Shown here one piece after another: positions 1,285-35,466 of a stretch of DNA of 64,000 nt (the stretch's first letter is position 1; each line of letters opens with the position of its first letter). The notes beneath the pieces were generated by a model. It saw nothing but the letters and a program-made list of their open reading frames with translations, did no database searches and was not told the DNA's origin. The translations under genes and the position numbers were made by a program. This stretch comes from a virus: IMG/VR virus record IMGVR_UViG_3300020152_000002, positions 1 to 64,000 of that record. One strand, 5' to 3'.

Positions 1285-1533
1285 CTAGAGAATGGCGAAA
1301 GGGTCGTCCTCTGCCGGGGTTTCAGCGAGGCAAGCGAACGGGTCGGTCTCGGGCTCCTTGGCCGGTGCAGAACCCTCCGGCCGCCCCAGCGCATCCCACA
1401 GCAGGAAGGCGGCCTTGCGATCCCAGCTAGAGTCGCGCAGGCCCCGGATGCCACAGGAGTAGACCTTCTCGTCCGGCACACCGTCGAGCATCGCCGGGAA
1501 GTCATTGGCGAAGAACTTCTCGAACGGCGTCAT
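1285..1533 (-). CDS. hypothetical protein with DPFA motifs
   Basis: 82 aa; ATGA overlap with upstream gene; ends TDPFACL...EDDPFAIL. Confidence 0.75.
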   Translation of the reverse strand: MTPFEKFFANDFPAMLDGVPDEKVYSCGIRGLRDSSWDRKAAFLLWDALGRPEGSAPAKEPETDPFACLAETPAEDDPFAIL

Positions 1534-2111
1534 TGAATGTCGAACTCATCATCGGCCACGGGGGCAGCCATATCGCGCGGTTCCCACCAGCCCCCGATAC
1601 GCGGGCGCAGCGGATCGTCCGGTTTGACATCGACGATCAGACCGTCCCCGTCGATCATGTAGGTCGGCAGCGAGTAGGTCGTCGAGTAGCTGGGATCAGC
1701 GCGCATTTGCAGATAATCGTAGAACGCATCCATGGCGTCCTGAAAGCGCGTGATCTGTAGGATGCGCGCATACTCGCGCAGTTCGTCGTCGTCGTGCCAG
1801 TTCCGCAGCCTGTCGAACGGGATCATGTCGAAGCACGACGCCATGGACCACGCCTGATACGTCGAACTCAACACGCGCTCATACCAGTAGACGCCCATGG
1901 GCAGCAGCGTCCCCAGCCCATCATAGAACCCGGCCCTGATCACCGTCACGAAGCCCGGTTCTTCATTCAGGGCAGCGCCCGGCTTGAAGTGACGCAGGAA
2001 GCGCACGACGGATGGGATCAGATACAGGTCATAGCGGCGGGGGTCAGACATCGGATCATAGGTCGGCAGGATAGGATCGCCCCAAGGGGTGACGCCAAAT
2101 CCGTAGTTCAT
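1530..2111 (-). CDS. hypothetical protein
   Basis: 193 aa; GAGGGG RBS; ends ADDEFDIQ. Confidence 0.8.
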   Translation of the reverse strand: MNYGFGVTPWGDPILPTYDPMSDPRRYDLYLIPSVVRFLRHFKPGAALNEEPGFVTVIRAGFYDGLGTLLPMGVYWYERVLSSTYQAWSMASCFDMIPFDRLRNWHDDDELREYARILQITRFQDAMDAFYDYLQMRADPSYSTTYSLPTYMIDGDGLIVDVKPDDPLRPRIGGWWEPRDMAAPVADDEFDIQ

Positions 2112-2129
2112 GCCGTCCGGCCCCTCTCG

Positions 2130-2858
2130 TTACATCAGGCCCGCGAACGGGTCGGCCTTGGGCTTCTGGATGACTTCGCCCCACTCGTCCACTTCGGGCT
2201 CGCCCTCGGCGGCCGGAGCGGGCTCCGCAGGGGCACTCTCGGGCTCGGCCGCGCCCATGTCCAGATCGGCGAAGGGATCGGCCTCCGGCGCACTCTCGAC
2301 GGCGCTGGCGGTCGGCTCGCTGCCCATGTCCAGATCGGCGAACGGATCGGGCTCGGCGGCCGTCAGGTCCAGATCGCCGGACAGGTCGATGTCGGCCGCC
2401 GGGGGCTCGGTGTGAGCCGCGTCCGTCAGGTCCGGGGCCGCGCCGGTCGTGGCAGGCTTGGCCGCCGCCCGGCTCCGGGTGCTCGGCACCGTCGCCTTGG
2501 GAGTGCCGCTGCCGCCCTTGGGCAGCGTGTCGTTCTCCACGTCCTGCCTGAACATGGCGTAGCCGTCCGCCCGCCTGAACGCCCAGCGCACGATGCCTTC
2601 GACCGGGAACGGACAGTAGATGAACGGCCCGTAGCGGTTGTCGCGGCCCAGCGGGAACTCGCTGCCCTCGACGCCCAGTGGCGTCTCCATCTGGTGCGGA
2701 TAGTTGCCGTCGCCAGTGTGCGCCTTCCACCAGAGTTCGTTCTGCTGCTGGATGCGCTTCTTGTAGTCCTCCCACGGCTCCGTGTTGCCGAAGGAGTGCC
2801 AGTTCGGCGGTTCGGCTCCGTAGAGAAGATACGGGTTCTTGGTAGTCGGAGTGACCAT
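2130..2858 (-). CDS. hypothetical protein: folded N-terminus plus acidic disordered tail with repeated DPFADL
   Basis: 242 aa; DPFADLDMG twice, DEWGEVI, DPFAGLM. Confidence 0.85.
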   Translation of the reverse strand: MVTPTTKNPYLLYGAEPPNWHSFGNTEPWEDYKKRIQQQNELWWKAHTGDGNYPHQMETPLGVEGSEFPLGRDNRYGPFIYCPFPVEGIVRWAFRRADGYAMFRQDVENDTLPKGGSGTPKATVPSTRSRAAAKPATTGAAPDLTDAAHTEPPAADIDLSGDLDLTAAEPDPFADLDMGSEPTASAVESAPEADPFADLDMGAAEPESAPAEPAPAAEGEPEVDEWGEVIQKPKADPFAGLM

Positions 2859-2859
2859 A

Positions 2860-4686
2860 TCAGCCTCGCGGAAGGGGCGGGAGGAAGGACAGCAGGACGA
2901 CGAACATGACCAGCGCAGCGATGGCGCTGCCGAAGGCCATGGCGATCATCCACAGCGGGTTGACGGAGCGGATCGCCAGATGCTCGACTTCACCAACGAT
3001 CTGATGGTCCACGTTCGATCCAGCGGGATAGCTGTAGGAGCGCGTCGGCACCTTGCCCATCCCCTTGTTGATGAAGTCCGCGAACCACGCCTCGATCTCG
3101 GCCGTATCCTGCGGATCGTAGTCGCTGTCGATCATCGCCGTCAGCGTCATGGGGCGACCGTCGTAGCGCAGATGGTCCTTGTTGCGGATAACAAGCGCGC
3201 CGCCCGTGAAGTGCGTCATGCTGTCCTCGGGGCCGATCTCACGATGCGGGTCAGCGAAGCCGTGCCGGTCGATCCGTTGCCGCGTCGAACGCAGCACAGC
3301 TTCACGGGCTACCAGAGCGGCGTCGTCGCGTTGCACCATGCCGTCGTAGTCGTATTGGCCCAGCCGCTTGTCGATCCAGTCCACCATCGGCAGCGCATCG
3401 TCCTCGGCCTTGGCCGCAGCCGACGCCGCCGCGATGTTTTCCGGCGTGGCCGGAACGGGGATTTCGAGCGCGCCGATGATCTTGTCCAGCACGTTCAACT
3501 GGTGCTGCCAGTAGTCGTGATCGTCCTGCGTCTGCGCCTCGTCTCGCGCAATCGCCAGCGCCCGTCGCCAGTCGTTCTCGTGCGAGATGATGTCGGCGAT
3601 GGCGTCCGACCGGCTGTATTGATCCAGACCGACGCCGACGATGCTCTCGCGTTGCAGCCGGTCGTGAACGTCACCCAGCGTGGTCTCCGGCGGCAGGTGC
3701 CGCGCCAGACCTTCCTCGCGCAGTTCCTCCATTTCGAGCGCCACGCTGATGCGCTCGACGCCGCGCGCAATGCCCGGATGCCGGACGCCGCCAGTCCCCA
3801 AATGGTCGGCCAAGGAGTGCCGCTTGAACTGCCCGGCCGCCGACATGCGGCTCACCAGTTCACGCGAGTAGAAGGTTTCGCGCGATCCCTGCCGCTGATC
3901 CCGGATCAGTTCGAGATCGGCCCGAACGATTTCCTCCGGCGTGAAGTGCTCGCGGATCGCCTCGGCGATCTTCTGCGGCTCCACGTTGCCCAGCGCCGGG
4001 CTGGTCTTGTTATGGAAGTCACGCGCCAGTTGCAGCGTGATCCGGGCGACCTGATCGCCGTCCTTGGCGCGCTCGGCGAGGATGCCTTCGACCTGATCGT
4101 CATAGCGCGGCAGCAGAGGCAGATCGGCCTCCGAAACCATGTCGTTCGACGGGTCGCCGGGACCGCCGTCAACCGGGGGCTCGTGTTCTTGCTGCGCCAT
4201 GTCGGTGCTCTCCTGTGCGTCGCGCGTGTTCCGCATCTTGCGGTAGAGCGACCATGCGATGTTGCGGTTGGTTTCGTCGCGCTCGTAGATCAGTTCGAGC
4301 CACGACGGCTCGATCAGCTTTTCGGCGGCGAGCCACGCCCAGCCCTTCGGCGAGAACATCACCTGCGGAACCGACGTGGACAGTTTGAAGACGTAGCCCC
4401 AGTCGATCAGATTGCGGATCGCCGGGCCGACCGTCGTGGAGTTCAGGACCGTATCGCTCGTGTCGAACAGATGCCGCGTCTTCATCCCCGACGCATGACA
4501 GCGCCAGCGGCTCGGCTCCTTACCGACCGGGCGCGAACGCATCCGCACCTTGATCTCGGAACGCGCCAGCAGCGCCTCCATGGCGGCGCGACGAACTGGC
4601 GTCCACCAGCCCGGCATGTTGCTGGTGCCGTCGATATGAGTTTGGCGGTGTTCTTGAGTTGAGGCGCGGGTCACAGGATGTCCCAT
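2860..4686 (-). CDS. large hypothetical protein with a C-terminal transmembrane helix
   Basis: 608 aa with coding-like codon bias; hydrophobic C-terminus; start uncertain. Confidence 0.8.
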   Translation of the reverse strand: MGHPVTRASTQEHRQTHIDGTSNMPGWWTPVRRAAMEALLARSEIKVRMRSRPVGKEPSRWRCHASGMKTRHLFDTSDTVLNSTTVGPAIRNLIDWGYVFKLSTSVPQVMFSPKGWAWLAAEKLIEPSWLELIYERDETNRNIAWSLYRKMRNTRDAQESTDMAQQEHEPPVDGGPGDPSNDMVSEADLPLLPRYDDQVEGILAERAKDGDQVARITLQLARDFHNKTSPALGNVEPQKIAEAIREHFTPEEIVRADLELIRDQRQGSRETFYSRELVSRMSAAGQFKRHSLADHLGTGGVRHPGIARGVERISVALEMEELREEGLARHLPPETTLGDVHDRLQRESIVGVGLDQYSRSDAIADIISHENDWRRALAIARDEAQTQDDHDYWQHQLNVLDKIIGALEIPVPATPENIAAASAAAKAEDDALPMVDWIDKRLGQYDYDGMVQRDDAALVAREAVLRSTRQRIDRHGFADPHREIGPEDSMTHFTGGALVIRNKDHLRYDGRPMTLTAMIDSDYDPQDTAEIEAWFADFINKGMGKVPTRSYSYPAGSNVDHQIVGEVEHLAIRSVNPLWMIAMAFGSAIAALVMFVVLLSFLPPLPRG

Positions 4687-4895
4687 TGATGTTGCGTGAA
4701 GTCAGCGTGAAGGGCCACGATACACGCGGCGATCTTTTCCTGCAAGCCACCTTCGGGCTTGCCCGGTTCTACGATCCCGAGGATCGGCCGACCGGGGAGC
4801 GCGGGGTGCTCCACCCGGACGACGGCTGGCCCCCGGCCGAAGTCGAACTCGCGCACCGCGCAAGCCGCCACAAAGGCCGGGGGCACCGCCGTCAT
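4671..4895 (-). CDS. hypothetical protein
   Basis: 74 aa; TGATG coupling to the upstream gene; ends QWDIL. Confidence 0.6.
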   Translation of the reverse strand: MTAVPPAFVAACAVREFDFGRGPAVVRVEHPALPGRPILGIVEPGKPEGGLQEKIAACIVALHADFTQHQWDIL

Positions 4896-5221
4896 CAGGC
4901 GCTCTTGCGCGCCTTGGACGGCCGCGCCGACGACTCGGCGATGCTGCGGGCGCTGGTCTCGCCGTTCGGGTTGTCGGCGGCCCAGTCCGGCCGCGTCAGG
5001 GTGCCCGCGAGGAACTTGGCGGCCCAGCCGCCGGGACGGCGCTGCGCGGCGCGACGCATCGTGTCGAGTTCCGACGCCGACCGGCTACGATCCGGGTTGT
5101 GCAGCGTCCGGTAGTGGTCGATGTTCTCGTTCCAGCTTCGACGTGCGATGGCGGCGGCGTTGATGCCGCGCTCACGATGCTGCCGCAGTCCGAAGGTGCT
5201 GCGCTTTTTACGTCCGGCCAT
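4895..5221 (-). CDS. basic hypothetical protein
   Basis: 108 aa; AAGGAGA RBS. Confidence 0.75.
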   Translation of the reverse strand: MAGRKKRSTFGLRQHRERGINAAAIARRSWNENIDHYRTLHNPDRSRSASELDTMRRAAQRRPGGWAAKFLAGTLTRPDWAADNPNGETSARSIAESSARPSKARKSA

Positions 5222-5234
5222 GTGGTCTCCTTTT

Positions 5235-5537
5235 CTACTCGGTTTCGTAATCGCTTCGGCGGATCAGCCACTCATCGTCGCCTGCGCCTTTGACAGCGTG
5301 GAAGTATCCCGGATTGGACTTCGTGTCCATAGTCGCGTTGCCGATCAGCGCAAAAACTACGTCGCGCGGTTCGACAGCTTTGACTTCCCTTCCCCCGATC
5401 ATGGTGATGACGGCGTTGTAGGGTGGTATCGCTCCGCCCTCTCGGTGCCGGGGAGAACTGACGCCGAGCACATTGGCGGGATTTACCTGCACCGTGTGCA
5501 GCCTGCCCTCCGCCGTCTGGACATGGACCATCGTCAT
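5235..5537 (-). CDS. hypothetical protein
   Basis: Start re-called at MTMVHVQ (ATGA overlap). Confidence 0.65.
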   Translation of the reverse strand: MTMVHVQTAEGRLHTVQVNPANVLGVSSPRHREGGAIPPYNAVITMIGGREVKAVEPRDVVFALIGNATMDTKSNPGYFHAVKGAGDDEWLIRRSDYETE

Positions 5538-5923
5538 TGCGGCACCGACAAGGGCCAGTCGCGGGCGACGGTGAAAGCGCGCATCGGGATCAGACGACGC
5601 CACGGCTGATCCGTCAGGACAGCGACGAGTTCTTCCCAGCGCAGGCCCTCGGACGCCGCCACCTGTTCGAGCGTCCGGCCGCCGTGGTTGACCTTGCACC
5701 GCTCACGCTGCGCCGGGGTCGGCTTGAACGTGAACTGCCGCCAGCCGTCACCCAGCAGGGCGTGATAGTCGATCTCGTGGATCGGCATGACCACCCAGCC
5801 CTCAAGGCCCTGCGCGATCTCGGCCGCCTGCTTGTGATCGACGCGCGCATACTCCGGCGACGGCTGATGCGGAGCCCGCACCAGATCGCCCGTGGCCGGA
5901 TCGTGCCAGTAGTGGATCAGCAT
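5534..5923 (-). CDS. hypothetical protein
   Basis: 129 aa; operon packing. Confidence 0.7.
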   Translation of the reverse strand: MLIHYWHDPATGDLVRAPHQPSPEYARVDHKQAAEIAQGLEGWVVMPIHEIDYHALLGDGWRQFTFKPTPAQRERCKVNHGGRTLEQVAASEGLRWEELVAVLTDQPWRRLIPMRAFTVARDWPLSVPQ

Positions 5924-5925
5924 GG

Positions 5926-6156
5926 TCAGTCTTCCTTGTCTGCGAAACGCAGGAGTTGCAGTTTTAACCGCTCCATCAACCAGATGACGGTGCCGCCGTC
6001 TGCGATAGAGGATGCGAAGTATTCTTCCTCGTCTTCATCGTATCCCATGATGACGACGTTCTTGAGCTTGCCGCTCTCGATGGCTTCCCTCAAGACCAGC
6101 ACTGGATCGGTGTCCAGACGGGTCACTCCCGGAAAGCGAACAAGCTCTCCCGCCAT
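5926..6156 (-). CDS. small hypothetical phage protein
   Basis: 76 aa; TGATG coupling. Confidence 0.75.
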   Translation of the reverse strand: MAGELVRFPGVTRLDTDPVLVLREAIESGKLKNVVIMGYDEDEEEYFASSIADGGTVIWLMERLKLQLLRFADKED

Positions 6157-6422
6157 CAGACTTCGCCCGGCCCGACGACGTAGGGAATGCGGATCACCGG
6201 GTGCTTCACACAGTTGATCCCGATGCGAATGCTGCCGCCTGCGTTCAGGAGCGCGAGTTCTTCCGGCGTCGGCTTGTATTGACTGACCATGAACACGAGC
6301 CCGCTATACTCGTCTTCTTCGTCGCGCGTCGGAAGGACGCCGATAGCGCCCCGCTCATTGGCGTTCCAGCCATCGGGCTCTCCGTGGCTCCGGTTCGCGC
6401 CGGGGATGCGTTCAACGTCCAT
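6156..6422 (-). CDS. hypothetical phage protein
   Basis: 88 aa; GGAGAGG RBS. Confidence 0.75.
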   Translation of the reverse strand: MDVERIPGANRSHGEPDGWNANERGAIGVLPTRDEEDEYSGLVFMVSQYKPTPEELALLNAGGSIRIGINCVKHPVIRIPYVVGPGEV

Positions 6423-6609
6423 TGTCTTCTTCCTCTCCGCACCAGTCGCACTCGGCGCTGTTGCACAGTCCCATCTCGTGAAGTTCGGCCGGGCCGATGT
6501 CTTCCCCGTCTACATCGACGTAGCTGCCGCTCGCCGGGTCGATGAAGACTTCCGGGTCGTCGGTCGGCGTCAGGCCCGTTTTGGGCGTCAGGCTGACGCT
6601 ACTGGTCAT
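6412..6609 (-). CDS. small acidic protein with a Cys cluster
   Basis: 65 aa; H..CNSAECDWC; GGGGAG RBS. Confidence 0.65.
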   Translation of the reverse strand: MTSSVSLTPKTGLTPTDDPEVFIDPASGSYVDVDGEDIGPAELHEMGLCNSAECDWCGEEEDNGR

Positions 6610-6991
6610 CGTTCTCCCCGCCCGCGTTCGTGTCGCTGAACGGCTGATCGCCGACGCCCGCGAACTCGGGAAGCTCCTGATTGGAGTAATCGGCGACGAT
6701 CCATTCCGGCGTGTCGTCGATCCAGTGGATTTCGATGTCGAGCCCGGCGATGTTCTCCTGCGTCAGGCTGTCGCTCTCCGGGTCGATATACAGAGTGCCG
6801 TCGTCATTGATCTTGTTGACGGTGATCTGACCGCCCGCCACGTCCACGGCGACCGGCATAGCCTGCATGTCGGGACGACGCGGGTCTTTCAGCGGCTCGC
6901 CGGTCGTCTTGTCGATGACGACGAGATACTGGGTGATGGCCTGATCGTTCTTGTCAACGTCAGCTTTGAGGATGCCGCTCGGGATCGTCAT
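6599..6991 (-). CDS. acidic hypothetical protein
   Basis: Start re-called at MTIPSG after AAGGAAAG. Confidence 0.7.
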   Translation of the reverse strand: MTIPSGILKADVDKNDQAITQYLVVIDKTTGEPLKDPRRPDMQAMPVAVDVAGGQITVNKINDDGTLYIDPESDSLTQENIAGLDIEIHWIDDTPEWIVADYSNQELPEFAGVGDQPFSDTNAGGENDDQ

Positions 6992-7322: not shown

Positions 7323-7662
7323 CCTTGAACGGGTCCGTGAAGGCGACGAGTTCTTGCAGTTCCAGCTTGTCGCCGATCTGACGCAGGCTGACAGGCTTGG
7401 CGCGACAGGCGCGAGCGAAGGCGCTGCCGATCAGCGCCGTCTCCTTCGTGAAGCTCGGGCGGCCCTTGTGATCCGGGTGATGCCAGATCAACCCGGCGAC
7501 CGTCAGGACTTCTATCACCGCGTCCAGATCGGCCTCGCAGTTGAACGCCACAGGCCACACCCAGCGCCGCCGGTCGCCCTTGAAGCTGTATTGCAGAAAC
7601 CACAGCTTCATGCGGCGCTTCTCGATGTCTGCGAGCAAATCCTTGTCAGACTTGGACAGCAT
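7315..7662 (-). CDS. hypothetical protein
   Basis: 115 aa; GAGGGA RBS. Confidence 0.7.
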   Translation of the reverse strand: MLSKSDKDLLADIEKRRMKLWFLQYSFKGDRRRWVWPVAFNCEADLDAVIEVLTVAGLIWHHPDHKGRPSFTKETALIGSAFARACRAKPVSLRQIGDKLELQELVAFTDPFKDA

Positions 7663-20130: not shown

Positions 20131-20316
20131 TCAAAGGATGTCCCATGCGGGATCGTCCGCCGGAACCATAGGCTCGGGCGGCTCGTAGGGATCGTCACGC
20201 AGCAGCGGACGCCACGGGCGACTGGGCCGCTCAAGCAGGTAGACTTGGGGGACCAGTTCGGCGTCCATCATGTCAGCGATCAGTTCCATCATCTCCGGTG
20301 CCAGTTGCGCCGCCAT
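20131..20316 (-). CDS. small hypothetical protein
   Basis: 61 aa; ends ADDPAWDIL. Confidence 0.55.
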   Translation of the reverse strand: MAAQLAPEMMELIADMMDAELVPQVYLLERPSRPWRPLLRDDPYEPPEPMVPADDPAWDIL

Positions 20317-20388: not shown

Positions 20389-21876
20389 TCACAGGATGTC
20401 GAACTCGTCGTCCGTGGCCGATATGTCGGGCGTGATGCGGTAGCCACCGCCATCCTTCGTGAAGGGAGGCGTCGGCGCTTCGATGATCCGCTCGGCTTCG
20501 CGCGCCACGGCGATCATGCTGTCCAGCGCAGCGGTGGTCGCCTCGGTCTCGGCGGCAGGCTTGATACGCAGGGCCATGATGCGTCCTTGCGGACCCCCGT
20601 CGCGGACGACCGTCACGCCCGGCGCACGAGCAGCCTTCTCGGCTTCGCGCTGCACTTCGTCAGACGGCCCGACAGGGATATAGCCATCTTCGTCGGCGGC
20701 ATGGAGCATCACCGGATCAGGCGGCGATCCGGTCATCTCACCGAGAATGTCCCACGGGTTTGTGGCCGTCTGGTAGATCGGCGTCCCGTCAGGCCATGCG
20801 CCAAACGACAGGTCCAGATCGGAAGGACCGTCACTCCCGGCAGGCGGATCAGACGGCAACATGATGTCCACGCCAGAGCCCTCGTAGGCGCTGTCGTCCG
20901 GCGCGAGTTCTCCGGTCGCCTCGGCGCGGATCGCGGCAGCCAGCATCGGCACGACGTGCTTCCCGGCGTCGGTCAGCCGCCAGTCGAACTTGCCCTTGCG
21001 CCGGATCAGGCCGAGCACGGCGAGCAGGCGGCAATGCTTGGCCGGACGCATCACGTCGGACAGGCCGGAGGCGAGCCAGTCCTGAAACCGCTGCGGACAC
21101 AGACGCGCAAGGGTGAAGCCGTCGCGCTCGCCGGAGGCCAGAGCAGCGGTGACGGCGCGCATCTCGTAAGAGCACCGCCAGTAGTCCACGTCGCCGTCAC
21201 GCACGAGTTGGATCATGCCCGCACCGTCCTCGGTCATGTTGAACGGACGAAGCTGGCGACCGTCCATGTGCGACGACTTCCACGCGACGCCGGGAAGGAT
21301 CGTCGTCTGCGTTAGGAAGGCGCATAGCTCGGGAGCGTATTCGACCGTGACGCGCGTCTCCGGCGTGAAGGACCGTCCTCCCTGTTTGCGCTGGGCCAGT
21401 TCGTCGAAGGCGAGTAGCAGTTCATTGGAGGGAATGAGACCATCCCCCCTCGGCGCAGGGAGCAATACCCCCAGCGCCTCGAACATGATGCCCCCCGGCA
21501 GTTTTGCGATGGGGGGTGGTCCAGACAGCCAGTCGAGGATGCCCTGCGGTAGCTCGGCCAAGACATCGGCCAAGGGAAAGAGCGGGGGAAGCGTCCGGCG
21601 GTCGCGGCTCATCGGCGGGAGCGCCTTGGCCCACGCTAGGCCGAAGGCGTTCAGCTTGAAGGCGCTCTCCGGGGGCCTGCCGTCGTTTATGCGGGAATCG
21701 GCGAGCGTTATTTGCGCCATGTTCCAGTCGGTCAGCTTGGTCTCGGACTTGGCGAACTGGCTGGTGCTGGCGGGGAGCGGATGCGGGTATTCCGCGTAGC
21801 ACTCCGCAAGGGCCTGATGGGTGTAGCGGTCGAGCCGAACCCAAGCCCGGCCTTGCTTTATTTGGATCATGGACAT
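20389..21876 (-). CDS. large hypothetical protein, first gene of the leftward arm
   Basis: 495 aa; acidic tail ending TDDEFDIL. Confidence 0.85.
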   Translation of the reverse strand: MSMIQIKQGRAWVRLDRYTHQALAECYAEYPHPLPASTSQFAKSETKLTDWNMAQITLADSRINDGRPPESAFKLNAFGLAWAKALPPMSRDRRTLPPLFPLADVLAELPQGILDWLSGPPPIAKLPGGIMFEALGVLLPAPRGDGLIPSNELLLAFDELAQRKQGGRSFTPETRVTVEYAPELCAFLTQTTILPGVAWKSSHMDGRQLRPFNMTEDGAGMIQLVRDGDVDYWRCSYEMRAVTAALASGERDGFTLARLCPQRFQDWLASGLSDVMRPAKHCRLLAVLGLIRRKGKFDWRLTDAGKHVVPMLAAAIRAEATGELAPDDSAYEGSGVDIMLPSDPPAGSDGPSDLDLSFGAWPDGTPIYQTATNPWDILGEMTGSPPDPVMLHAADEDGYIPVGPSDEVQREAEKAARAPGVTVVRDGGPQGRIMALRIKPAAETEATTAALDSMIAVAREAERIIEAPTPPFTKDGGGYRITPDISATDDEFDIL

Positions 21877-21911
21877 GGTGACGGGTCTCTGATGCGGGAT
21901 GTGAACCTTAT

Positions 21912-21940
21912 TTGTTACGCGGTGTCGGGGGCCGGGTCAA
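21912..21940 (-). promoter_or_regulatory. leftward arm promoter
   Basis: TTGACC-N17-TAACAA. Confidence 0.55.
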
Positions 21941-22250
21941 CAGAGGGGGTTTGGAGGGCGATTTCGGGGGTCGGAGATGGTGGTTATGCGTTTATTCTAG
22001 GGGTGCGCCAAGTCGGGCTTACAAGTAGCAGGTGACGACATTAATAGGTAGTATATGTGTGGGGTGAGATTAAATGATGCGCCCTGACATCGCTATCGGG
22101 GTTGACGGCAAAAAAGCCGATGGTGTGGTGGAAGTGTAAAAATAGTTCTCCCTATGGGACTATATTATTCTTCTCAATAAAATAAAATAAAGATAAAAGC
22201 TAAAACCGGCTGTCCTTGGCCGCAGATCGTGCTCGCAGTCCGCATCACGC

Positions 22251-22330
22251 CGGAAAACGCAGAAGGTGATGCAGAAAATCGGTTTCAAACCTGCGCGGAA
22301 AACGCAGAAGGTGAATCGGAAAATCGGTTT
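22251..22330. repeat. two-copy direct repeat, 45-bp period
   Basis: CGGAAAACGCAGAAGGTGA...AAAATCGGTTT at 22251 and 22296. Confidence 0.85.
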
Positions 22331-22382
22331 GGAGGCTAGGATCGAACGGAAAATGGTAAATCTGAATAAAAGCGGGCATCAC

Positions 22383-22750
22383 GTTAACCTTAACACGCCG
22401 TTAACCTTAAAAAGTAGGGTTAACGCAGCATTAAGGTTAATCGGCCGGTAAGGTTAATCACACAGTAACCTTAAAAGTTAAGGTTAATCGGGTAAGGCGA
22501 AGAAGTAAGGTTAATCGGCATAAAACTGTTAACCCTACTTCGCTGTTAAGGTTAATCAGGGGTTAACATTCACGCCTTGTTAACCTGAATAGTTAAGGTT
22601 AACCCGGTTAAGCAGTCCTGTTAACGCTACCAAACATGGTTAACCGCATTAACCACCGCCGTTAATCACGTCTGTTTACGCAATCTTAACGAATCTGTGC
22701 CCATGGGGAGCCACGGTTAATGTTCCATGAATGACCGGAACATTAACCAG
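22383..22750. repeat. AT-rich array of TTAA/TAAGGTTAA motifs including CtrA-type boxes
   Basis: More than 25 TTAA; perfect TTAA-N7-TTAA at 22390, 22420 and 22552. Confidence 0.8.
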
Positions 22751-22941
22751 TCCGCAGAACGCAGCCGGAACAAAACGTAGACGTTTGCGAACTCCGATTT
22801 TTTCGACCCGTGACACCGGAGACGGCAGAAAACCGCTCCACGGGCTTAAAAACGGCCTTTCTGGGCATTCTCATTATGGGACACCTTTTCGGCGTCCTTT
22901 TTACGCCGTCCGCATCAAAAAGCGGGTTTTCGCAGTCCGCA

Positions 22942-22974
22942 TTAGTTGACTGTTAAGCGGCGCGCGCGTAGAAC
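22942..22974 (+). promoter_or_regulatory. rightward early promoter overlapped by a CtrA-like box
   Basis: TTGACT-N17-TAGAAC; TTAG-N7-TTAA spans the -35. Confidence 0.65.
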
Positions 22975-23112
22975 CGTCATGTTAGGTCTTTGACATCGTT
23001 TATCCCTCCCGCGTCCGGCTAGTCCGGCGCGGCTTTGTGCATCCCTTCGCGGGAACTGACACAGACTAACCGGCCGCAATGACGCGGCCTGATCATCTAG
23101 GGAAACACACAG

Positions 23113-26187: not shown

Positions 26188-26672
26188 TCGGCCTAGCCGT
26201 TGCGGTCATAACGTGGCCTTTTAGTCACATGAAGCAGTAAGCCAGTAGAGGCAGAGTAGAGCGCAAGTAATCGCAGCCAATGAGCGAAGCGGTTACTTGC
26301 GTTCATCTGTTCAATGTCAGTTGAGCACAAGTAAGAGGGAAGATGAGCCAAGCATTCAAAACCCGAATCCCCCAATGGCACAGTAGAGCGGGGTTCGGCC
26401 GGGCTCGACAGCGAATGTGTCTACGCAACCCGTAAAATAGTTCAAAAAGGATCGCCAAAAGTGCAAAACAAGGCAGTCCTGAATAAAAAGCATGTGTTCG
26501 CTGTATTTTAATCGCAGAATGCCCCAAATCGCCCTAATAGACCGCCTTCGAGCGCAGATTTTTCAGAAATAGGAGCCGAAAAAGCTCCAAATGCGCCAAT
26601 CTGAATAAAATCCCCGCCTTGCCCGGCCCAAATCGCCTTGACGCCGCAGCGTCCGGCAAGCATTTTCGGCGC

Positions 26673-27371
26673 ATGTCCGCTCTCGCCCTCCAATCCGACG
26701 ACTACATGCGCGTCGAACCGCTCGGCCCCGCCGAGAAGGCGGAGATCGTAGACGCGCTCTACAAGCACTTCTCGATGCAGAAGGTCGTCGAAGCCACAGG
26801 CTACGATCTGCGGCGGATTATGACCGCCATCGACGAAGACCCGGAGTTCTCGAACGCCATGGCGCTCGCCGAACGGCACCTGTCGGTGATCGGTGAGGAC
26901 GAGCTTAAGCGCCGCGCGATCCACGGGGTCGATAGCGTCGTGGTCGCCAACGGCCGCGTCGTCTATCAGGTCGTGGACGGCGTTCGCCGCCCGATGGTCG
27001 AGACCAAATACAGCGACGCGCTGCTCAAGACCTATCTCGAAGCCAACCGGCGCGACAAGTTCGGTGCCAAGCTCGAAGTGACCACCACGCACAAGGGCGT
27101 CATCGCCCTGCCTGCGTTCTCGCCCGAGATGATGCAGCTTCTCTTGGCCGATGCCAGAGGGGAGCGCGTCGAACTGATCGTGGATCAGGAGATGGACGCC
27201 GAGGACAAGCCGGAAGTGATCGACGCCGAATACAGCGTCGTCGGGGAAGCCGCCAACACGGACGCCGAGTTCGAGCGCGCCGATGATGAGACGATCCGTC
27301 AGCGCGTCCGGGAGATGACCCGCGAGACGGTCCCGGAGTCGGCCACGGAAGACGGCTTCGACATCCTGTGA
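26673..27371 (+). CDS. terS: terminase small subunit
   Basis: Directly upstream of TerL; ELKRRAIHG...KYSDALL motif; ends EDGFDIL; start re-called at ATG 26673. Confidence 0.8.
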   Translation: MSALALQSDDYMRVEPLGPAEKAEIVDALYKHFSMQKVVEATGYDLRRIMTAIDEDPEFSNAMALAERHLSVIGEDELKRRAIHGVDSVVVANGRVVYQVVDGVRRPMVETKYSDALLKTYLEANRRDKFGAKLEVTTTHKGVIALPAFSPEMMQLLLADARGERVELIVDQEMDAEDKPEVIDAEYSVVGEAANTDAEFERADDETIRQRVREMTRETVPESATEDGFDIL

Positions 27372-28954: not shown

Positions 28955-30514
28955 ATGGCCCGACAACCCAAGTCCGTCGTAGACAATGCCCGGAGGCAGG
29001 CCCGCCAGACCAAGGCGGCGCTGGACCCCTCCACGCCTTCGCTCGACTACAAGGCGCTGCAAGGCGACTGGAACCTGATCTCGACGGTGCTGGGCGGCAC
29101 GAAGTCGATGCGCGCGGCCGGGAAGTCCCTGCTGCCGCAGCACGAAGGCGAGAGCGATCTGCGCTACAAGGATCGCCTGAACAGCGCCACCTTCACGAAC
29201 TACACGGCGCTGACGCTCGATCACTGGTGCGGCAAGCCGTTCTCGAAGCCCGCCGTCATCTCGAAGGACAGCGACCCCGACATCATCAAACTAGCGGCCG
29301 ACATCGACCTGTGTGGCTCCGAACTGACGGTGGTCCTGAAAGACTGGTTCACGAAGGGCATGGCGAAGCGCCGTGCCTACTGCCTCGTCGAGTATCCGAA
29401 GGTGCCGGATCACATTCGGGCTCGCGGCGTGACCTTGGCCGACGAACAGCGTCTCAATCTGCGCCCTTACTGGGTGATCATCCCGGCGGAGGCGATGATC
29501 GCGCCCCGCAAGGAGCGGGTGAACGGCGAAGACATCTTCACGAACGTCCGCTTCTACGACAACGAGACCTACTACGACGGTTTCGAGGAAAAGGTGCGGG
29601 TCCGCATCCGCGAGATCGAACGTGCGGTCCTCGAACGCGACGAGTTCGGCGACGAAGTGAGCGTCGTCGTGCGGACGCGCCTTCACGTCAAGAAGGATCG
29701 CAACGAGTGGGACACGAAGGACTGGGAAACGGTCGATGCGCCGGATAACCTGATCACGCTCGTCGAGTTCGACACCGGCAAGCTCGAACTGCTCGATCTC
29801 GCCTACCTGAACATCACGCACTGGCAGTCGGCGTCGGATCAACGCAACTGCCTGACCACCGCGCGCTTCCCGATCCTCGCGGCCAAGGGCGTCGCGGCGG
29901 ATACGGTCGTGACCATCGGCCCCTACGCCTTCCTCGCGTCGAAGGACTCGAACAGCGAGTTCTACTACGTCGAGCACGGAGGCGCGGCGCTGGACGCCGG
30001 GCAGACCGATCTCGACAAGCTCACCGAAGACATGGCGCTCTACGGGGCGGAGATGCTGAAACAGCGTCCCGACCGGGAGACCGCAACATCTCGGGTTCTG
30101 GACCAAGCAGAAAACACAGCCCCCTTGCAGGTGCATGTGTTCAACTTCATCAGCGCCGTCAACATGGCGCTGTATTACACCGCTCGTTGGCTGGACAAGC
30201 CCGAGAACACGGTGGCGCGCATCGAGATGGATACTGACTTTGCGCTGTCGGCGGAAGCGACGCAAAAAGTCGATCACTTGAAGGAACTTCGCAAGTCGGG
30301 GGACATTTCACGCAAGCAACTTCTCACTGGCATGAAAGAGGCCAAGGCTCTGCCCGACAGCTTCGACATCACCGCCAATGAGTCGGAGCTTGACGCGGAA
30401 GCCGATGCCAAGGCCACAAAGGCGGCGGACGCGGCGAAGAAGCTGGCAGCCGCCAGTCCACCCAAACCCGCTCCGGGTAGTCCGGGCGGGAAGACCCCGG
30501 AGAAAGACCAATGA
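28955..30514 (+). CDS. portal protein (DUF4055-like)
   Basis: After TerL; LPQHEGES..Y..RL..A.F.NYT, RPYW, LDLAYLNITHWQSASD. Confidence 0.9.
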   Translation: MARQPKSVVDNARRQARQTKAALDPSTPSLDYKALQGDWNLISTVLGGTKSMRAAGKSLLPQHEGESDLRYKDRLNSATFTNYTALTLDHWCGKPFSKPAVISKDSDPDIIKLAADIDLCGSELTVVLKDWFTKGMAKRRAYCLVEYPKVPDHIRARGVTLADEQRLNLRPYWVIIPAEAMIAPRKERVNGEDIFTNVRFYDNETYYDGFEEKVRVRIREIERAVLERDEFGDEVSVVVRTRLHVKKDRNEWDTKDWETVDAPDNLITLVEFDTGKLELLDLAYLNITHWQSASDQRNCLTTARFPILAAKGVAADTVVTIGPYAFLASKDSNSEFYYVEHGGAALDAGQTDLDKLTEDMALYGAEMLKQRPDRETATSRVLDQAENTAPLQVHVFNFISAVNMALYYTARWLDKPENTVARIEMDTDFALSAEATQKVDHLKELRKSGDISRKQLLTGMKEAKALPDSFDITANESELDAEADAKATKAADAAKKLAAASPPKPAPGSPGGKTPEKDQ

Positions 30515-31194
30515 ACAAGACCCCCTACGTCGGCATGACTGTCGTCGTCCATGATCGCGGCCGTCCGCAGGCCGGGCGCGATGTCCACCCCGCCATCATC
30601 ACGCAGGTCGTGAACGAAGGTGCGGGCACCATCGCCGTCCGCGTCCTGCCCGAACAGGGCGTGGACTACCCGATCAAGGCCATCAACTACATGCACGGCG
30701 ACGCCTACATGGAGGGCCTGTCGTGGCGCTGGCCCGAAGACCCGTCCAAGGTCCAGACCGGCGCTGGCGAGGCCCGCACCCCGGCTCCGCAGGACGTGGC
30801 GGCCCCGACGCCGGGCGACCACGAGCCCCGCACCGTCGCCGGGAAGGAAGTCGCCAAGCCGGGCGACGCTCCGCAGGCCGGTCAGTCCAGCGACGTGACG
30901 GGCGAAGGCTCGCTCGCGGCGCAGGACGGCAACGCCGACGCGGCGGAAGGGGAGGGCGGCGACGATCCGTTCGCCAACCTGACCGACACCCCGCAGGACG
31001 GCAAGAAGCCCGCTGACGGTGCCGACAGCGCCTCGGTCGCCAACGCGGCCGGGAACGTCGCCGACACCGCCGCCGGAGCCGACGCCAACACGTCCGACGC
31101 GACGAAGGGCAGCCTGACGGCCGCCTCGGAAGGCGCGCAGAAGGCGGGCGACAAGGCCGCCGACAAGAAGGACGACGGCAAGAAGGCCAAGTAA
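30511..31194 (+). CDS. small beta domain plus disordered tail
   Basis: PYVG..V...PAIITQV...SWRWP, then an acidic/Ala tail with DDPFANL. Confidence 0.8.
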   Translation: MNKTPYVGMTVVVHDRGRPQAGRDVHPAIITQVVNEGAGTIAVRVLPEQGVDYPIKAINYMHGDAYMEGLSWRWPEDPSKVQTGAGEARTPAPQDVAAPTPGDHEPRTVAGKEVAKPGDAPQAGQSSDVTGEGSLAAQDGNADAAEGEGGDDPFANLTDTPQDGKKPADGADSASVANAAGNVADTAAGADANTSDATKGSLTAASEGAQKAGDKAADKKDDGKKAK

Positions 31195-31205
31195 GCGTCT
31201 CGGAA

Positions 31206-31233
31206 GGCCGTCCCGGTTAGCGCCGGGACGGCC
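31206..31233 (+). terminator. intergenic hairpin
   Basis: GGCCGTCCCGG-TTAGCG-CCGGGACGGCC; no U-tract. Confidence 0.45.
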
Positions 31234-31257
31234 GACCACCCTCACGAGGACATCACC

Positions 31258-31446
31258 ATGGACCGTCTGGTTCGCATCATCTTTCTCATCGTTCTTCTCG
31301 CCGTCATCGCCCTGTGTATCTGGCTACCGTCGCTGCTGCCGATGAACTGGCGCGCGGTCATCGGGTGGATCACGCTGTCCGGGGTCGGTATCGCGGCGGT
31401 GATCCTTCTCGTCGCGTGGAGCTACGCGACAGCCATGCGGTCATAG
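31258..31446 (+). CDS. two-TM protein, holin candidate
   Basis: GAGGA RBS; two TMs; directly upstream of the endolysin. Confidence 0.6.
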   Translation: MDRLVRIIFLIVLLAVIALCIWLPSLLPMNWRAVIGWITLSGVGIAAVILLVAWSYATAMRS

Positions 31447-31455
31447 GAGCCGACC

Positions 31456-32061
31456 ATGAACCTGAACCCATTCGCAAACTGGAAAGCCCCCGGCGCGGCG
31501 AACGCCGTCCCCGGTGAAGGCCAGAAGGTCAATCCGGCCGCGCCGTTCGCAGCGGCCTATTGGATCGCGTGGGCGCTGCTGCAAGTCGGCACCCGTGAGA
31601 TCGTCGGCCCGCGCCACTCCCCCGTCATCATGGGCTGGATCAGGGAACTCGGCGCGAAGGCGCTGGGCATTCAGGTCAACGACGACGAGACGCCGTGGTG
31701 CGGCACATTCGCCGCCATGGTGATGAAGATGGCGAGGCTGTCCATTCCGGCCATCGCCGTGAGAGCGTCCCAGTGGGGCAGGGCTGGAAACTGGGGCCGC
31801 GAACTGCTGGCACCGCGTCCGGGCTGCATCATGGTCTTCACGCGCAACGGCGGCGGTCACGTCGGCTTCTACATGGGGGAGACCCGGACGCACTTCCGCA
31901 TTCTCGGCGGCAATCAGTCCAACAGCGTCAGCGAGACGTGGATCGCCAAGGATCGCTTGGCCGAAGGTGGGATGCGCTGGCCCAAGGGTGTGCCCCTGCC
32001 CGCCGCGCATCGCATCCATCTCAAGAGCGACGGCAAGCCCGCTTCGACCAACGAAGCGTAA
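31456..32061 (+). CDS. endolysin, TIGR02594/NlpC-P60-like peptidase
   Basis: DDETPWCG..GHVGFY..LGGNQSNSV. Confidence 0.88.
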   Translation: MNLNPFANWKAPGAANAVPGEGQKVNPAAPFAAAYWIAWALLQVGTREIVGPRHSPVIMGWIRELGAKALGIQVNDDETPWCGTFAAMVMKMARLSIPAIAVRASQWGRAGNWGRELLAPRPGCIMVFTRNGGGHVGFYMGETRTHFRILGGNQSNSVSETWIAKDRLAEGGMRWPKGVPLPAAHRIHLKSDGKPASTNEA

Positions 32062-32158
32062 AAGCCCTCTCGACAGATGCGGCCCTAGTCGTCTAGGGTC
32101 GCATCACTTCATTCACCACCCCCGTTACGCACGGTTCAGATCAGGGTAAGCACTCCCC

Positions 32159-32980
32159 ATGGAAGACTTCTACTTCGAGGACAACGCGGAACTCCCGGAG
32201 GCGGAGTTCGAGAGCAAAGTCCCGGCGGACTTCCGCTTCGCCTACACGAAGGGCGACGGCGGCACCTACAAGCTGAACGACCAATACGCCGCCGCCGCCA
32301 AGCTGATCGACGGCCGGGGTCGGACGCTCAAGCAGGCGAAGGCCACGAACCAGTCGGTCGGCCTCGAAAGCAAGCAGCGCCGCGAAACCCTCGAAAAGTG
32401 GGCCGCCGAGACCGGCTTCGAGTCGCCGGAAGCGGCGAAGGAAGCCATCGCCGCCATGCAGGAGAAGATCAACTCCAAGTCGGCGATCAAGCCGGAGGAA
32501 GTTCGCGCCGCCATCGAGAAGGAGTTCACCGGCAAGCTCGAAGCGTCCGAGAAGAAGGCGGAAGCCATGTTCTCGACGCTGGAAAAGCACCTGCGCGACA
32601 AGGACGCCCTGTCGGCCATCGCCGAGCACAAGGGCAACGCGAAGCTGCTGATGCCGCTGATCCTCGCGCAGACCAAGGTCGTGCAGGACGAAGACACCGG
32701 GGAGTATTTCACCGCTGTCCTGAACGCGAAGGGCGAAGTCCGCGCCGGAGCGGACGGCGGCCCGCTGTCCATCAGCAAGCTCGTCGCCGAGATGAAGGAA
32801 GACAAGGACTTGGCGTCCGCCTTCGAGGGCTCGCAGAAGAACGGTGGCGGCACCGATCCGAAGCAGCAGCAACAGCGCGGCCCGCATCAGCCGACCAACC
32901 AGCAGCGTCGGGAAGGCGGCGAAGATCGCGCCCAGCGCGGCATCAGCAAGATCAGCGCGGGGCTCGCGCAACGCCGCTGA
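32159..32980 (+). CDS. capsid scaffolding protein
   Basis: Charged helical protein immediately before the capsid gene; ends KISAGL. Confidence 0.8.
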   Translation: MEDFYFEDNAELPEAEFESKVPADFRFAYTKGDGGTYKLNDQYAAAAKLIDGRGRTLKQAKATNQSVGLESKQRRETLEKWAAETGFESPEAAKEAIAAMQEKINSKSAIKPEEVRAAIEKEFTGKLEASEKKAEAMFSTLEKHLRDKDALSAIAEHKGNAKLLMPLILAQTKVVQDEDTGEYFTAVLNAKGEVRAGADGGPLSISKLVAEMKEDKDLASAFEGSQKNGGGTDPKQQQQRGPHQPTNQQRREGGEDRAQRGISKISAGLAQRR

Positions 32981-33046
32981 TCGAGGCTTGACGGCAAAAT
33001 CGTTAACGAGCCGACTTGAAAACGGCCGTTAACCATGACAAGGATC

Positions 33047-33078
33047 AGGGCGCGCTCACAACGCGCCCTGTTTCGTTT
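33047..33078 (+). terminator. hairpin/terminator in the capsid leader
   Basis: CAGGGCGCG...CGCGCCCTG-TTTCGTTT. Confidence 0.55.
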
Positions 33079-33079
33079 C

Positions 33080-33129
33080 CGGGGGGATACCCGGCGCAGG
33101 GAGCGGGACGGCACGGGGGGATACCCGGC
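33080..33129 (+). repeat. 16-nt direct repeat in the capsid leader
   Basis: CGGGGGGATACCCGGC at 33080 and 33114. Confidence 0.8.
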
Positions 33130-33173
33130 ATGTCCACAAGAGCGGTGAAAACCCCTTTCTGTGGAGACATCCC

Positions 33174-34115
33174 ATGGCGTCCGTGACGCTCGAAGAAGCC
33201 GGTAAGCTGGCGGAAGACCAACTCGTTCAAGGCGTGATCGAGGAAATCATCGACTCGAACCCCATGTTCGAGATTTTCCCGTTCGAGGGCATCGACGGCA
33301 ACTCGCTGGCCTTCAACCGCGAGAACACGCTGGGCGACGTGCAGGTGCTCGGCGTCGGCGGCACCATCACCGCCAAGAACCCCGCGACGTTCACCCGCGT
33401 CAACGCCAACCTGACCACGATCCTCGGCGACGCCGAAGTCAACGGCCTCATTCAGGCCACCCGGTCGGGCAACGTGGACCAGAAGGCGCAGCAGATCGCG
33501 TCCAAGGCCAAGTCGGCGGCCCGCAAGTATCAGGACATGATGATCAACGGCACCGGCGTCGGTGACGAGTTCGTCGGCCTGCGCGGTCTGGTCGCCAACA
33601 GCCAGAAGGTCAACGCCAAGACGGCGGGCGACGACACGAACGGCGGCGTCCTGACGTTCGAGCTTCTCGACGAACTGCTGGACATGATCAAGGACAAGGA
33701 CAGCCGTCCCGACTTCCTGATGATGTCGGCGCGTGAACGCCGTCGCGTTCAGCAACTCCTGCGCGCCATGGGCGGTGCGTCTCCGGCCGATGTCTACACG
33801 ATGCCGTCCGGCGAGCAGATCATCGCCTACAACAACGTCCCCATCTTCATCAACGACTACATCCCGACGAACCTGACGCGCGGCAACCGTTCGGACGCCT
33901 CGGTCATCTTCGCCGGGACGTGGGACGACGGCTCGCTGACCCACGGCATCTCGGGCCTGACCGCCCGGAACGCGGCGGGCATCAGCATCGTGGAAGTCGG
34001 CCAGTCCGAGACCAAGGACGAGGAAATCACCCGCGTCCGCTGGTATTGCGGGATGGCGAACTTCTCGCAGAAGGGCCTCGCCATGCTGCAATACGTCGTG
34101 CCGCCGACCAGCTAA
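33174..34115 (+). CDS. major capsid protein
   Basis: MASVTLEEA..LV.GVIE.I...PF.GI.GN...ILGDAEV...ITRVRWYCG; YuA-like capsid; GGAGA RBS. Confidence 0.92.
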   Translation: MASVTLEEAGKLAEDQLVQGVIEEIIDSNPMFEIFPFEGIDGNSLAFNRENTLGDVQVLGVGGTITAKNPATFTRVNANLTTILGDAEVNGLIQATRSGNVDQKAQQIASKAKSAARKYQDMMINGTGVGDEFVGLRGLVANSQKVNAKTAGDDTNGGVLTFELLDELLDMIKDKDSRPDFLMMSARERRRVQQLLRAMGGASPADVYTMPSGEQIIAYNNVPIFINDYIPTNLTRGNRSDASVIFAGTWDDGSLTHGISGLTARNAAGISIVEVGQSETKDEEITRVRWYCGMANFSQKGLAMLQYVVPPTS

Positions 34116-34225
34116 GGCGGCTTGCGCCCACGGCGGGTCTGGCCCTATGGTCAGGCCCGCCGCTCGGGCGTTCTTTCGCGTTCGTGTAGGCTTTCAACCA
34201 ACCCTCATTGAGAGAGGCACCAGAG

Positions 34226-34810
34226 ATGGCCCTGTTCAAAGTGGTTCTGCAAAGCGGAGCCTTCACGACGCTGGGCGGCAACAACGCCATGATCGTCGAA
34301 GCGGACAACGCCGCCGACGCCAAGGCCGCCGCCATGAACTATTCCGGCGACGACGCCGCCCCGTGGGATCAGGCGGTCGCCACCGAGATCACCCCCGACG
34401 CCACCTTCGCCGGGCTCCGGCTCGAAGTCCGCATCACGGCGGATGCGGACAACGGCTTCGACGAAGACGTGGTGATCGACTACACCGTGCCGGAAGGCGC
34501 GTCCGCCGATACCGTCGATGAGATCGGCGCGCTGCTGGTGGCGGAGATGAACGCTCACGCCGATCTGGCGGGCGTCACCTACACGTCGGGCTCCGACACC
34601 GTGACCATCGTGGAGGCCAACAACGTCGGCCTGTCCGCAATCTCCGCCAAGGTCTACGCGACCGGCGCGGCCGGTGAATACGAAGTCACCGGCATGGCCC
34701 CCACGGTCGGCGCGGTCGGTCTCGACGCCTCGTCGGATCGCACCATCGTCCTGACCCCGCTGGGCAACGGCCGTCCGGTCGTCGTCACCGGCTACAAGAC
34801 GGGCATCTGA
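34226..34810 (+). CDS. putative capsid decoration protein
   Basis: Follows the capsid gene; Ala/Thr/Val-rich; start re-called after GAGAGG. Confidence 0.7.
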   Translation: MALFKVVLQSGAFTTLGGNNAMIVEADNAADAKAAAMNYSGDDAAPWDQAVATEITPDATFAGLRLEVRITADADNGFDEDVVIDYTVPEGASADTVDEIGALLVAEMNAHADLAGVTYTSGSDTVTIVEANNVGLSAISAKVYATGAAGEYEVTGMAPTVGAVGLDASSDRTIVLTPLGNGRPVVVTGYKTGI

Positions 34811-34818
34811 TACTGCCC

Positions 34819-35466
34819 ATGAAAGCCGAGAACCAATCCATGCTGATCGCGGAAGCGCAAGGTCAGCAGACAATCCAAGCCCTGTTCATGCAGACCGGGC
34901 CGAAGGAACAGGGCGTCATTCTCAACTGCCAGTTCGAGCGCGACCCGGAAGACGGCAAGCTCTACTACGTCTTCACCGGGACGGCCGATCACTACATGCA
35001 GTTCCGGTCGCTGATGGCCGACTACGCCGTCCGGCCGGTCCACGAGATCGAGGGCCACCGCCTGAACCCGAAGACGCACGAGGCCGCCGCCCAAGAAGCG
35101 GGCGAGGCCGCGCCGGTCGTGGACACCGCCCCGGCGGAGTCGAAGTCGGCGGCCGACACGGGCGACAACCCGCCGGAGCTTTCCGCCACCGAAGGCGAGA
35201 TCGTCCGGCCCGAAGGAGACGCCGATGTCGCATCGGTTCACAGTCCCGGCCAACCTGCCGACAGCGGGCAATCCTCGCCCGCTCCGGGTGGTGAAGCCAG
35301 CGGGGCCAGCGCCGGGGATCACGCTGATGACCGGAGCGGACATGCTGGGGAACCCGGAGCTTCGGATCGGGGTGCCGGGGGAGAAGCCGCCGCCGCGAAC
35401 GGTGCTGGCACCGTCAGCGGAGAAGTGAAGCCGGGCTCGGCGAGCGATCCGTTCGCTGACCTTTAA
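34819..35466 (+). CDS. hypothetical protein with an acidic disordered tail
   Basis: 215 aa; ends ASDPFADL. Confidence 0.8.
   Translation: MKAENQSMLIAEAQGQQTIQALFMQTGPKEQGVILNCQFERDPEDGKLYYVFTGTADHYMQFRSLMADYAVRPVHEIEGHRLNPKTHEAAAQEAGEAAPVVDTAPAESKSAADTGDNPPELSATEGEIVRPEGDADVASVHSPGQPADSGQSSPAPGGEASGASAGDHADDRSGHAGEPGASDRGAGGEAAAANGAGTVSGEVKPGSASDPFADL

Follow-up and report, generated by a model that had tools for sequence, protein, structure and literature searches.

Why would unrelated proteins of one phage end in nearly the same short peptide? The question is raised by the first 64,000 bases (the window) of the IMG/VR record IMGVR_UViG_3300020152_000002, a complete phage genome of 87,606 bp with terminal repeats. 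We called 112 genes over the whole genome with a codon-usage model trained on its own long open reading frames (ORFs), a procedure in which the C-termini are unaffected by the choice of start codon. An acidic terminal tail of the type [DE]x[FW][DA][ID]L was found on 13 of the 112 proteins (the carriers), nine of them encoded in the window and four beyond it, with one variant, DDPDELF, included in the count. The carriers are unrelated to one another, as an earlier reading of the sequence (the initial annotation) had proposed, and the early, replication and late gene blocks are all represented. We give about even odds (roughly 50%) to the view that the tail is a short linear docking peptide, acting in trans on one shared receptor, that originated as a replisome tail.

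Enrichment of the tail at C-termini

The initial annotation had listed eight C-termini and several internal copies, and each was located in our gene calls; the internal copies are DPFADLDMG (twice) in the gene at 2130, TDPFACL in that at 1285, NPWDIL in that at 20389 and DDPFANL in that at 30511. The motif derived from them, [DE]x{0,3}[FW][DA][IDGN]L, proved to be enriched at C-termini: it matches 7 of the 112, against a mean of 0.01 when the last 30 residues of each protein were shuffled (at most 1 in 5,000 trials) and of 0.03 when random internal cuts served as mock ends (at most 2 in 5,000 trials); overall, some 0.01–0.05 ends of this type would be expected by chance. The core [FW][DA][IDGN]L occurs 20 times in 27,007 residues, with eight occurrences exactly C-terminal and a further one a single residue from the end, and it closed none of 1,071 non-coding stop-to-stop frames of at least 40 amino acids. 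A comparison that assumed no motif gave 35 protein pairs with at least three of their last four residues in common, compared with a mean of 6.3 and a maximum of 18 for mock ends (1,000 trials). The claim that the codons differ synonymously holds for most genes (ATT, CTT, CTA and CTC occur) but not for three, which share the identical preferred codons TTC GAC ATC CTG.

Conservation of the tails in close relatives

This is a Brevundimonas phage with Delta and its kin as nearest relatives. Its large terminase shares 88% identity with the enzymes of five siphophages of Brevundimonas (vB_BsubS-Delta, Leszy, Poludnitsa, Fanboy and BabaJaga), after which the next relatives reach at most 39% identity; the relatives have 111–119 annotated features. 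Orthologues were compared in the whole genomes of Delta, Poludnitsa and BabaJaga and in two IMG/VR fragments, the latter being the loci retrieved, one each, by IMG/VR searches with the single SSB (single-stranded DNA-binding protein) and TerL (large terminase) proteins. Every carrier with an orthologue keeps a tail of the family type, even where the protein bodies are only 33–46% identical, so the loss of the motif in close relatives that would have spoken against the initial annotation was not seen. Pooled over the 13 carriers and three to four orthologues each, identity is 84% in the last six residues, compared with 66% in the preceding 30-residue linker and 73% in the rest of the proteins, in agreement with its suggestion that selection acts on the peptide. 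The internal copies are likewise conserved among orthologues. The linkers that lead up to the tails are acidic, with a high content of Pro, Gly, Ser and Ala.

Among the leftward early genes, the 82-amino-acid protein of 1285–1533 (−) ends in EDDPFAIL (tail 1288–1308) and has an internal TDPFACL (1324–1344); its orthologues are only 33–34% identical and, at 215–219 amino acids, differ from it by more than 130 residues in length, yet both DDPFACL and the terminal DDPFAIL are kept. The 193-amino-acid protein of 1530–2111 (−) ends in ADDEFDIQ (tail 1533–1553) and its orthologues, 90% identical, in DDEFDI. Three motif copies are carried by the 242-amino-acid protein of 2130–2858 (−), which is composed of an N-terminal body and an acidic disordered tail: DPFADLDMG at 2322–2348 and again at 2253–2279, and the terminal KADPFAGLM (ADPFAGLM, 2133–2153). 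Both internal copies are retained in three GenBank orthologues, which end in ADPFDL. A 74-amino-acid protein (4671–4895, −) ends in QHQWDIL (tail 4674–4694), its orthologues in QDQWDIL (two of three) or SQEFDI (one of three), and a 61-amino-acid protein (20131–20316, −) ends in ADDPAWDIL (tail 20134–20154), with [DN][VP]WDIL in four of four orthologues. The first gene of the leftward early block encodes 495 amino acids (20389–21876, −) and shows DDEFDIL at its end (tail 20392–20412) and NPWDIL internally (20743–20760); at 40–46% identity, four of four orthologues end in DEFDIL and three of four have the internal NP[WF]DIL. A possible variant of the tail, DDPDELF (tail codons 836–856), closes a 146-amino-acid early protein of unassigned function (833–1273, −), whose orthologues are 82–85% identical and end in DPDDLF.

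On the other strand, the terminase small subunit (TerS; 26619–27371, +; phrog_4044, E value 7e-17), which may in fact begin at an ATG downstream of the TTG at 26619, ends in EDGFDIL (tail 27348–27368), and four of four orthologues end in [GE]FDIL. The 215-amino-acid head-region protein of 34819–35466 (+), a small N-terminal body followed by a linker rich in Gly, Ala and Ser, ends in ASDPFADL (tail 35443–35463), with PDPFADL in all four orthologues. Between these, after the portal gene, a 227-amino-acid protein with a long low-complexity region (30511–31194, +) lacks a terminal tail and has an internal DDPFANL (30961–30981); DAFADL stands at the equivalent place in three of four orthologues and no copy in the fourth.

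Beyond the window, the tail is found on a protein with a GapR-like DNA-binding domain (PF10073; 66961–67341, −), which ends in DDDPFDIR (DDPFDIR in two genomes, TAFDIL in three); on an SSB of the Enc34/T7 gp2.5 type (PF10991, E value 1.3e-27; 67966–68652, −), ending in GADEFQL; on a DUF2800 PD-(D/E)XK nuclease (PF10926, E value 2e-67; 69093–70643, −), ending in GDAFDIL; and on an 836-amino-acid primase-helicase of the Prim-Pol/PriCT_2/DUF5906 type (PF09250 and PF19263; 73857–76367, +), ending in DEWDIL. The carriers with a known function (SSB, nuclease, primase-helicase, GapR-like protein and TerS) are thus replisome or DNA proteins, and seven carriers have no known function. Pfam and PHROGs searches with the ten window genes that have the motif returned a family for TerS only, and for the 193- and 495-amino-acid early proteins a protein atlas gave either no usable match or weak ones (score at most 0.83, template modelling score below 0.25 by query).

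Matching tails across a wider phage family

The DNA polymerase of the phage (704 amino acids, PF00476) is a divergent family-A enzyme with 1,819 homologues at an E value of at most 1e-10 among 8,000 scored candidates. An alignment of 18 polymerase homologues led to 80 IMG/VR loci with 10-kb flanks and 33–93% polymerase identity, and a two-sequence SSB alignment to two IMG/VR loci; outside the loci examined here, polymerase relatives of 52–75% identity are present on long contigs. Of the 80 loci, 66 contained an SSB, 64 the nuclease and 27 the primase, and the tails of these proteins are alike within a locus and different between loci. Locus L050 has five ORFs ending in DEFDL, DFSDL, DFGDL, SELDL and DEGDL, and L067 has four ending in SLFD, DDLF, DDLFS and DELFGI, so that more than three carriers occur in other lineages as well. 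The tails are DDILG, SELGL and ALGLE in L038 and GGWDD and AGWDD in L088, and the SSB of Pamexvirus-like loci ends in SFLD.

After dereplication at 70% polymerase identity, 52 loci were left, and the last six residues were compared in a test of 20,000 permutations. The similarity of SSB and nuclease tails is 5.56 within a locus and 3.58 across loci, a difference reached by 28 of the 20,000 permutations (n=52), and that of nuclease and primase tails was reached by 594 (n=22). Phages in GenBank show the same pattern: PA_LZ02 has a primase ending in AFD and two further proteins ending in SFLD and SFLE, RcMaeve has the tails DDFDDLD and SLLDF, and ehaak_LB5 has GGDFE, GDQFE and VDFDKE. The DUF2800 nuclease is present in 1,363 GenBank phage records, and our survey of 52 lineages suggests that matching tails on SSB and nuclease are a general and unremarked rule in a very large group of phages. 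The large differences in the tail between lineages make a co-evolving, phage-encoded reader likelier than a very conserved host pocket.

Predicted structures of the carriers

The AlphaFold2 model of the SSB has a mean predicted local distance difference test score (pLDDT) of 90 and matches DUF2815 proteins, Enc34 ORF6 (5odl, E value 4e-12) and T7 gp2.5 (1je5, E value 4e-8). The proximal part of its tail (residues 191–210) is modelled at pLDDT 74–81 and its tip (residues 221–228) at a mean of 59. F200, the Phe of the D-F in AQDFGDL, where the tail begins, is invariant in 52 T7-type SSBs, whereas the tip varies by lineage; the SSB tail therefore seems to have a constant proximal and a variable distal element. 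In the nuclease model, pLDDT values are 55, 50 and 43 for the tail (residues 491–516) and below 50 for the last six residues (511–516). The tips of both proteins are thus predicted to be free and unstructured, which, as far as such models go, fits a peptide that acts in trans.

A complex model of the polymerase (704 amino acids) with SSB residues 1–195 and nuclease residues 472–516, run without controls, gave scores of 0.10 and 0.07 against a mark of 0.32, which favour neither binding nor its absence. A PHROGs search of the small proteins of the replication module produced no hub candidate. The nuclease has two further features. Four cysteines (C62, C320, C323 and C329) are invariant in 45 aligned sequences, a set that would presumably fit an iron–sulphur cluster as in Cas4/AddB-type nucleases, and its first 47 residues are modelled at pLDDT below 50, so the true start may lie further in.

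Comparison with known docking peptides

In T7, acidic tails shared by only two proteins are known to keep the replisome together. The gp2.5 tail anchors on the front basic patch of the T7 polymerase, and entry 6P7E holds a gp4-tail peptide bound to that polymerase (PMC12339929). SSBs of the T7 type have an acidic, disordered C-terminal tail, which in T7 has been implicated in contacts with the polymerase and the primase-helicase (PMC5686142). The likeness to our phage is close: a gp2.5-type SSB and a primase-helicase share an acidic tail with a key aromatic residue on a linker predicted to be disordered, and a family-A polymerase is encoded alongside. A tail common to SSB and primase-helicase, in a phage that has a family-A polymerase, has been described before, and this tie to T7 makes the statement of the initial annotation that no such system had been described too strong as to kind; as to the motif and the breadth of its carriers it stands, since open-access papers yielded neither the motif nor shared tails beyond those of T7 gp2.5 and gp4, although this is no proof of absence. 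What we describe appears to be the T7-type replisome docking tail in a much enlarged form. Two carriers in T7 compare with 13 here, among them a nuclease, a GapR-like protein, TerS, a head-region protein and seven ORFans (the proteins of unassigned function), and our phage, unlike T7, has internal and tandem copies. The primase-helicase is of the Prim-Pol/D5 type and not a homologue of gp4.

By PF10991 and by fold, the SSB belongs to the same family as the Enc34 ORF6/DUF2815 proteins and shares their acidic disordered tail. In Enc34 crystals this tail lies in the groove of a neighbouring SSB molecule; as far as the available part of that account goes, the tail is treated as a feature of the SSB only, and the same tip on neighbouring replication proteins is not reported (PMC5686142).

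Two other kinds of C-terminal peptide may be compared. The ssrA-like degradation tags, which mark unstable proteins, have a non-polar tip ending in Ala-Ala, unlike the tips here, which end in IL, DL, LM, IQ or IR. Bacterial SSBs close with a peptide of the DDDIPF consensus type. An acidic–hydrophobic tip at the end of a disordered linker there contacts both partner proteins and the oligonucleotide/oligosaccharide-binding (OB) fold of the SSB itself, and partners concentrate with the SSB (PMC7584906); one protein bears the tip and about 18 partners read it, whereas here the tip, of a different sequence, is borne by 13 proteins.

A proposed trans-acting docking tail and its alternatives

One shared partner, as the initial annotation had suggested, is the simplest account of the tails. 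We infer binding to a single receptor, and what that receptor might be, from the pattern described above. The peptide, borne on a flexible linker, joins an acidic run to a single aromatic residue (F or W) and an aliphatic tip. It would have arisen as a replisome tail in phages whose replication module unites a T7 gp2.5-type SSB with a DUF2800 nuclease, a family-A DNA polymerase and a primase-helicase; there, SSB and nuclease, and often the primase too, share one acidic–aromatic ending specific to the lineage. By analogy with the gp2.5 and gp4 tails of T7, the receptor is probably phage-encoded and part of the replisome. It would be a basic site with a hydrophobic pocket, and the candidates are the DNA polymerase and the groove in which the SSB binds DNA. 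Within the Brevundimonas Delta-like clade, the same peptide has spread to TerS, the GapR-like protein, the head-region protein and seven proteins of unassigned function (one of them with three copies); all carriers would then be brought to, or compete at, one site.

Several observations weigh against this docking peptide. The tip departs from that of T7, in which Phe is last: here F or W stands three to four positions from the end and is followed by D/A-I/D-L, the typical last residue being Leu and not Phe (L, Q, R or M among the carriers; only the 833–1273 variant ends in F, as in T7). The polymerase profile matches Taq and Klenow in the palm and fingers only, and T7 gp5 is absent among the 60 best solved chains listed for it; with so divergent a polymerase, a basic patch like that of T7 could not be mapped. 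The co-variation of SSB and primase tails is not significant (3,620 of 20,000 permutations, n=22), and other ORFs resemble the SSB tail in 21 of 1,186 comparisons within loci and 588 of 62,424 across loci, an excess of only about twofold. TerS of Pseudomonas phage PaMx28, from the lineage with SFLD tails, ends in NEGEPSS without a tail, which makes the TerS tail a clade-specific gain. No role at a replisome is known for TerS, the head-region protein or the ORFans, the DPFA-x-L and [FW]DIL forms might be two motifs with two readers, and no receptor emerged from the analysis.

A wider role is possible, though we think it rather unlikely: the tail could be an address label for a phage replication-and-packaging factory, the carriers being gathered at one phage hub, such as the polymerase or unoccupied OB grooves on the T7-type SSB, an abundant protein. 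Replication enzymes, the nucleoid-type protein, TerS and head-associated and host-takeover proteins would be concentrated on replicating phage DNA, and the three copies on the 242-amino-acid protein would make it a multivalent cross-linker or competitor. If true, the tail would amount to a code for client recruitment, built by the virus, that links genome copying with packaging and changes in step in each phage lineage.

It is more doubtful that there are two separate motifs with two readers, [FW]DIL for replication and packaging and DPFA-x-L for head-region and some early proteins. The two forms do cluster: DPFADL, DPFAGLM, DPFANL and DPFACL on the genes at 1285, 2130, 30511 and 34819, and [FW]DIL on TerS, the nuclease, the primase and the genes at 4671, 20131 and 20389. 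Bridging forms argue against the division, however. The GapR-like protein ends in DDPFDIR here and in TAFDIL in three relatives, the 1285 protein in DPFAIL and the 20131 protein in DDPAWDIL; the internal copy of the 20389 protein is NPWDIL or NPFDIL, DFGDL and AFGDL occur inside the SSB and nuclease linkers, and the orthologues of the 2130 protein end in ADPFDL.

The C-termini that bind the T4 gp45 clamp are likewise short peptides at the end of a client, read by one hub. For the tails to be motifs that bind the host β-clamp, the DnaN ring serving as hub for DNA enzymes, TerS and early proteins, strikes us as improbable. A layout of many clients and one hub is typical of clamps, and clamp motifs too place a single short peptide on many clients that handle DNA, either at termini or within disordered loops (PMC11139829), which matches the terminal and internal copies found here. 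The x-[FW]-D-I-L of the tails is loosely like QLDLF, one carrier has Q-W-D-I-L and the 833–1273 protein ends in D-E-L-F. The phage itself has no match to PF00712, the profile used to look for the phage clamp that the initial annotation had offered as a partner; in this reading the host ring would serve. The β-clamp-binding motif is Q-aliphatic-x-[LM]-[FL] (PMC11139829), and neither this nor the six-residue Q-aliphatic-x-[LM]-x-[FL] occurs in the last ten residues of any of the 112 proteins, the 13 carriers included; the tails thus do not fit the canonical form. Most tails have D, E, G, A or P at the compared position of the clamp motif, and their flanks are strongly acidic. Sister lineages with the same replication module have quite different tails (SFLD, GWDD, DFE and ELGL), which is unexpected for a very conserved clamp pocket, and none of the 102 genes in the first 50 kb of Kikimora, a jumbo phage of the same host species, has such an end.

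We attach a similarly low probability to a role in cis, in which each tail would be an acidic DNA mimic that shields the DNA-binding surface of its own protein and no receptor is shared. Tails of T7 gp2.5 and the Enc34 SSB occupy the SSB groove, and removal of the Enc34 tail unmasks binding to double-stranded DNA (PMC5686142). All carriers of known function bind DNA, and the proximal SSB tail, with its invariant F200, is modelled with better confidence than the tip. Independent contacts in cis would not be expected, however, to yield a near-identical tip of four to six residues on unrelated folds; moreover, the tips of SSB and nuclease are predicted to be free, tails co-vary between different proteins of one genome, and three successive copies stand on a single carrier.

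A sorting or turnover tag recognised by the host, whether by a protease adaptor, by a polar organiser or on a capsid-loading route (all put forward in the initial annotation), is very unlikely: the only point in its favour is that so many kinds of protein carry the tail, a head-region protein and early ORFans among them, whereas the essential, abundant SSB and the primase-helicase carry the tail and are poor candidates for degradation or encapsidation, the tails differ between sister phage lineages, and D-E-F-D-I-L-stop in GC-rich codons, a narrow pattern, had 34 matches, judged by title, in 185,579 prokaryote species (one genome each), none of them Caulobacterales.

The docking peptide, if it has one reader, would help to assign the seven ORFans to a process and to trace the coupling between replication and packaging, and would provide a portable tag that brings cargo to phage DNA. 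The same device is on about one protein in nine of a cultured phage and crosses from replication into packaging, head and early proteins; direct testing is possible, as both phage Delta and Brevundimonas subvibrioides, its host, are in culture.

Other features of the genome

A strongly coding frame at 3–785 (−) runs off the start of the record and probably continues at 86693–87604 (−); together they are probably the 'DNA helicase' that is a single 514-amino-acid gene in phage Delta, and the record seems to be cut inside it. Between the divergent early gene blocks, the 1.2-kb stretch 21877–23112 holds no ORF of at least 40 amino acids with a positive coding score. Beyond the window, a 725-amino-acid gene (76352–78529, +) follows the primase and has no BLAST orthologue in Delta, Poludnitsa or BabaJaga, which at this place have annotated genes for the alpha and beta subunits of ribonucleotide reductase. 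After the capsid gene, a 200-amino-acid protein (34208–34810, +) has its best matches, at 33–39% identity, to proteins of the relatives that end in PYLPSVAMAG, the ending of a 626-amino-acid Delta protein annotated as major tail protein; on this similarity, a tail-tube domain seems to have been duplicated beside the capsid gene.

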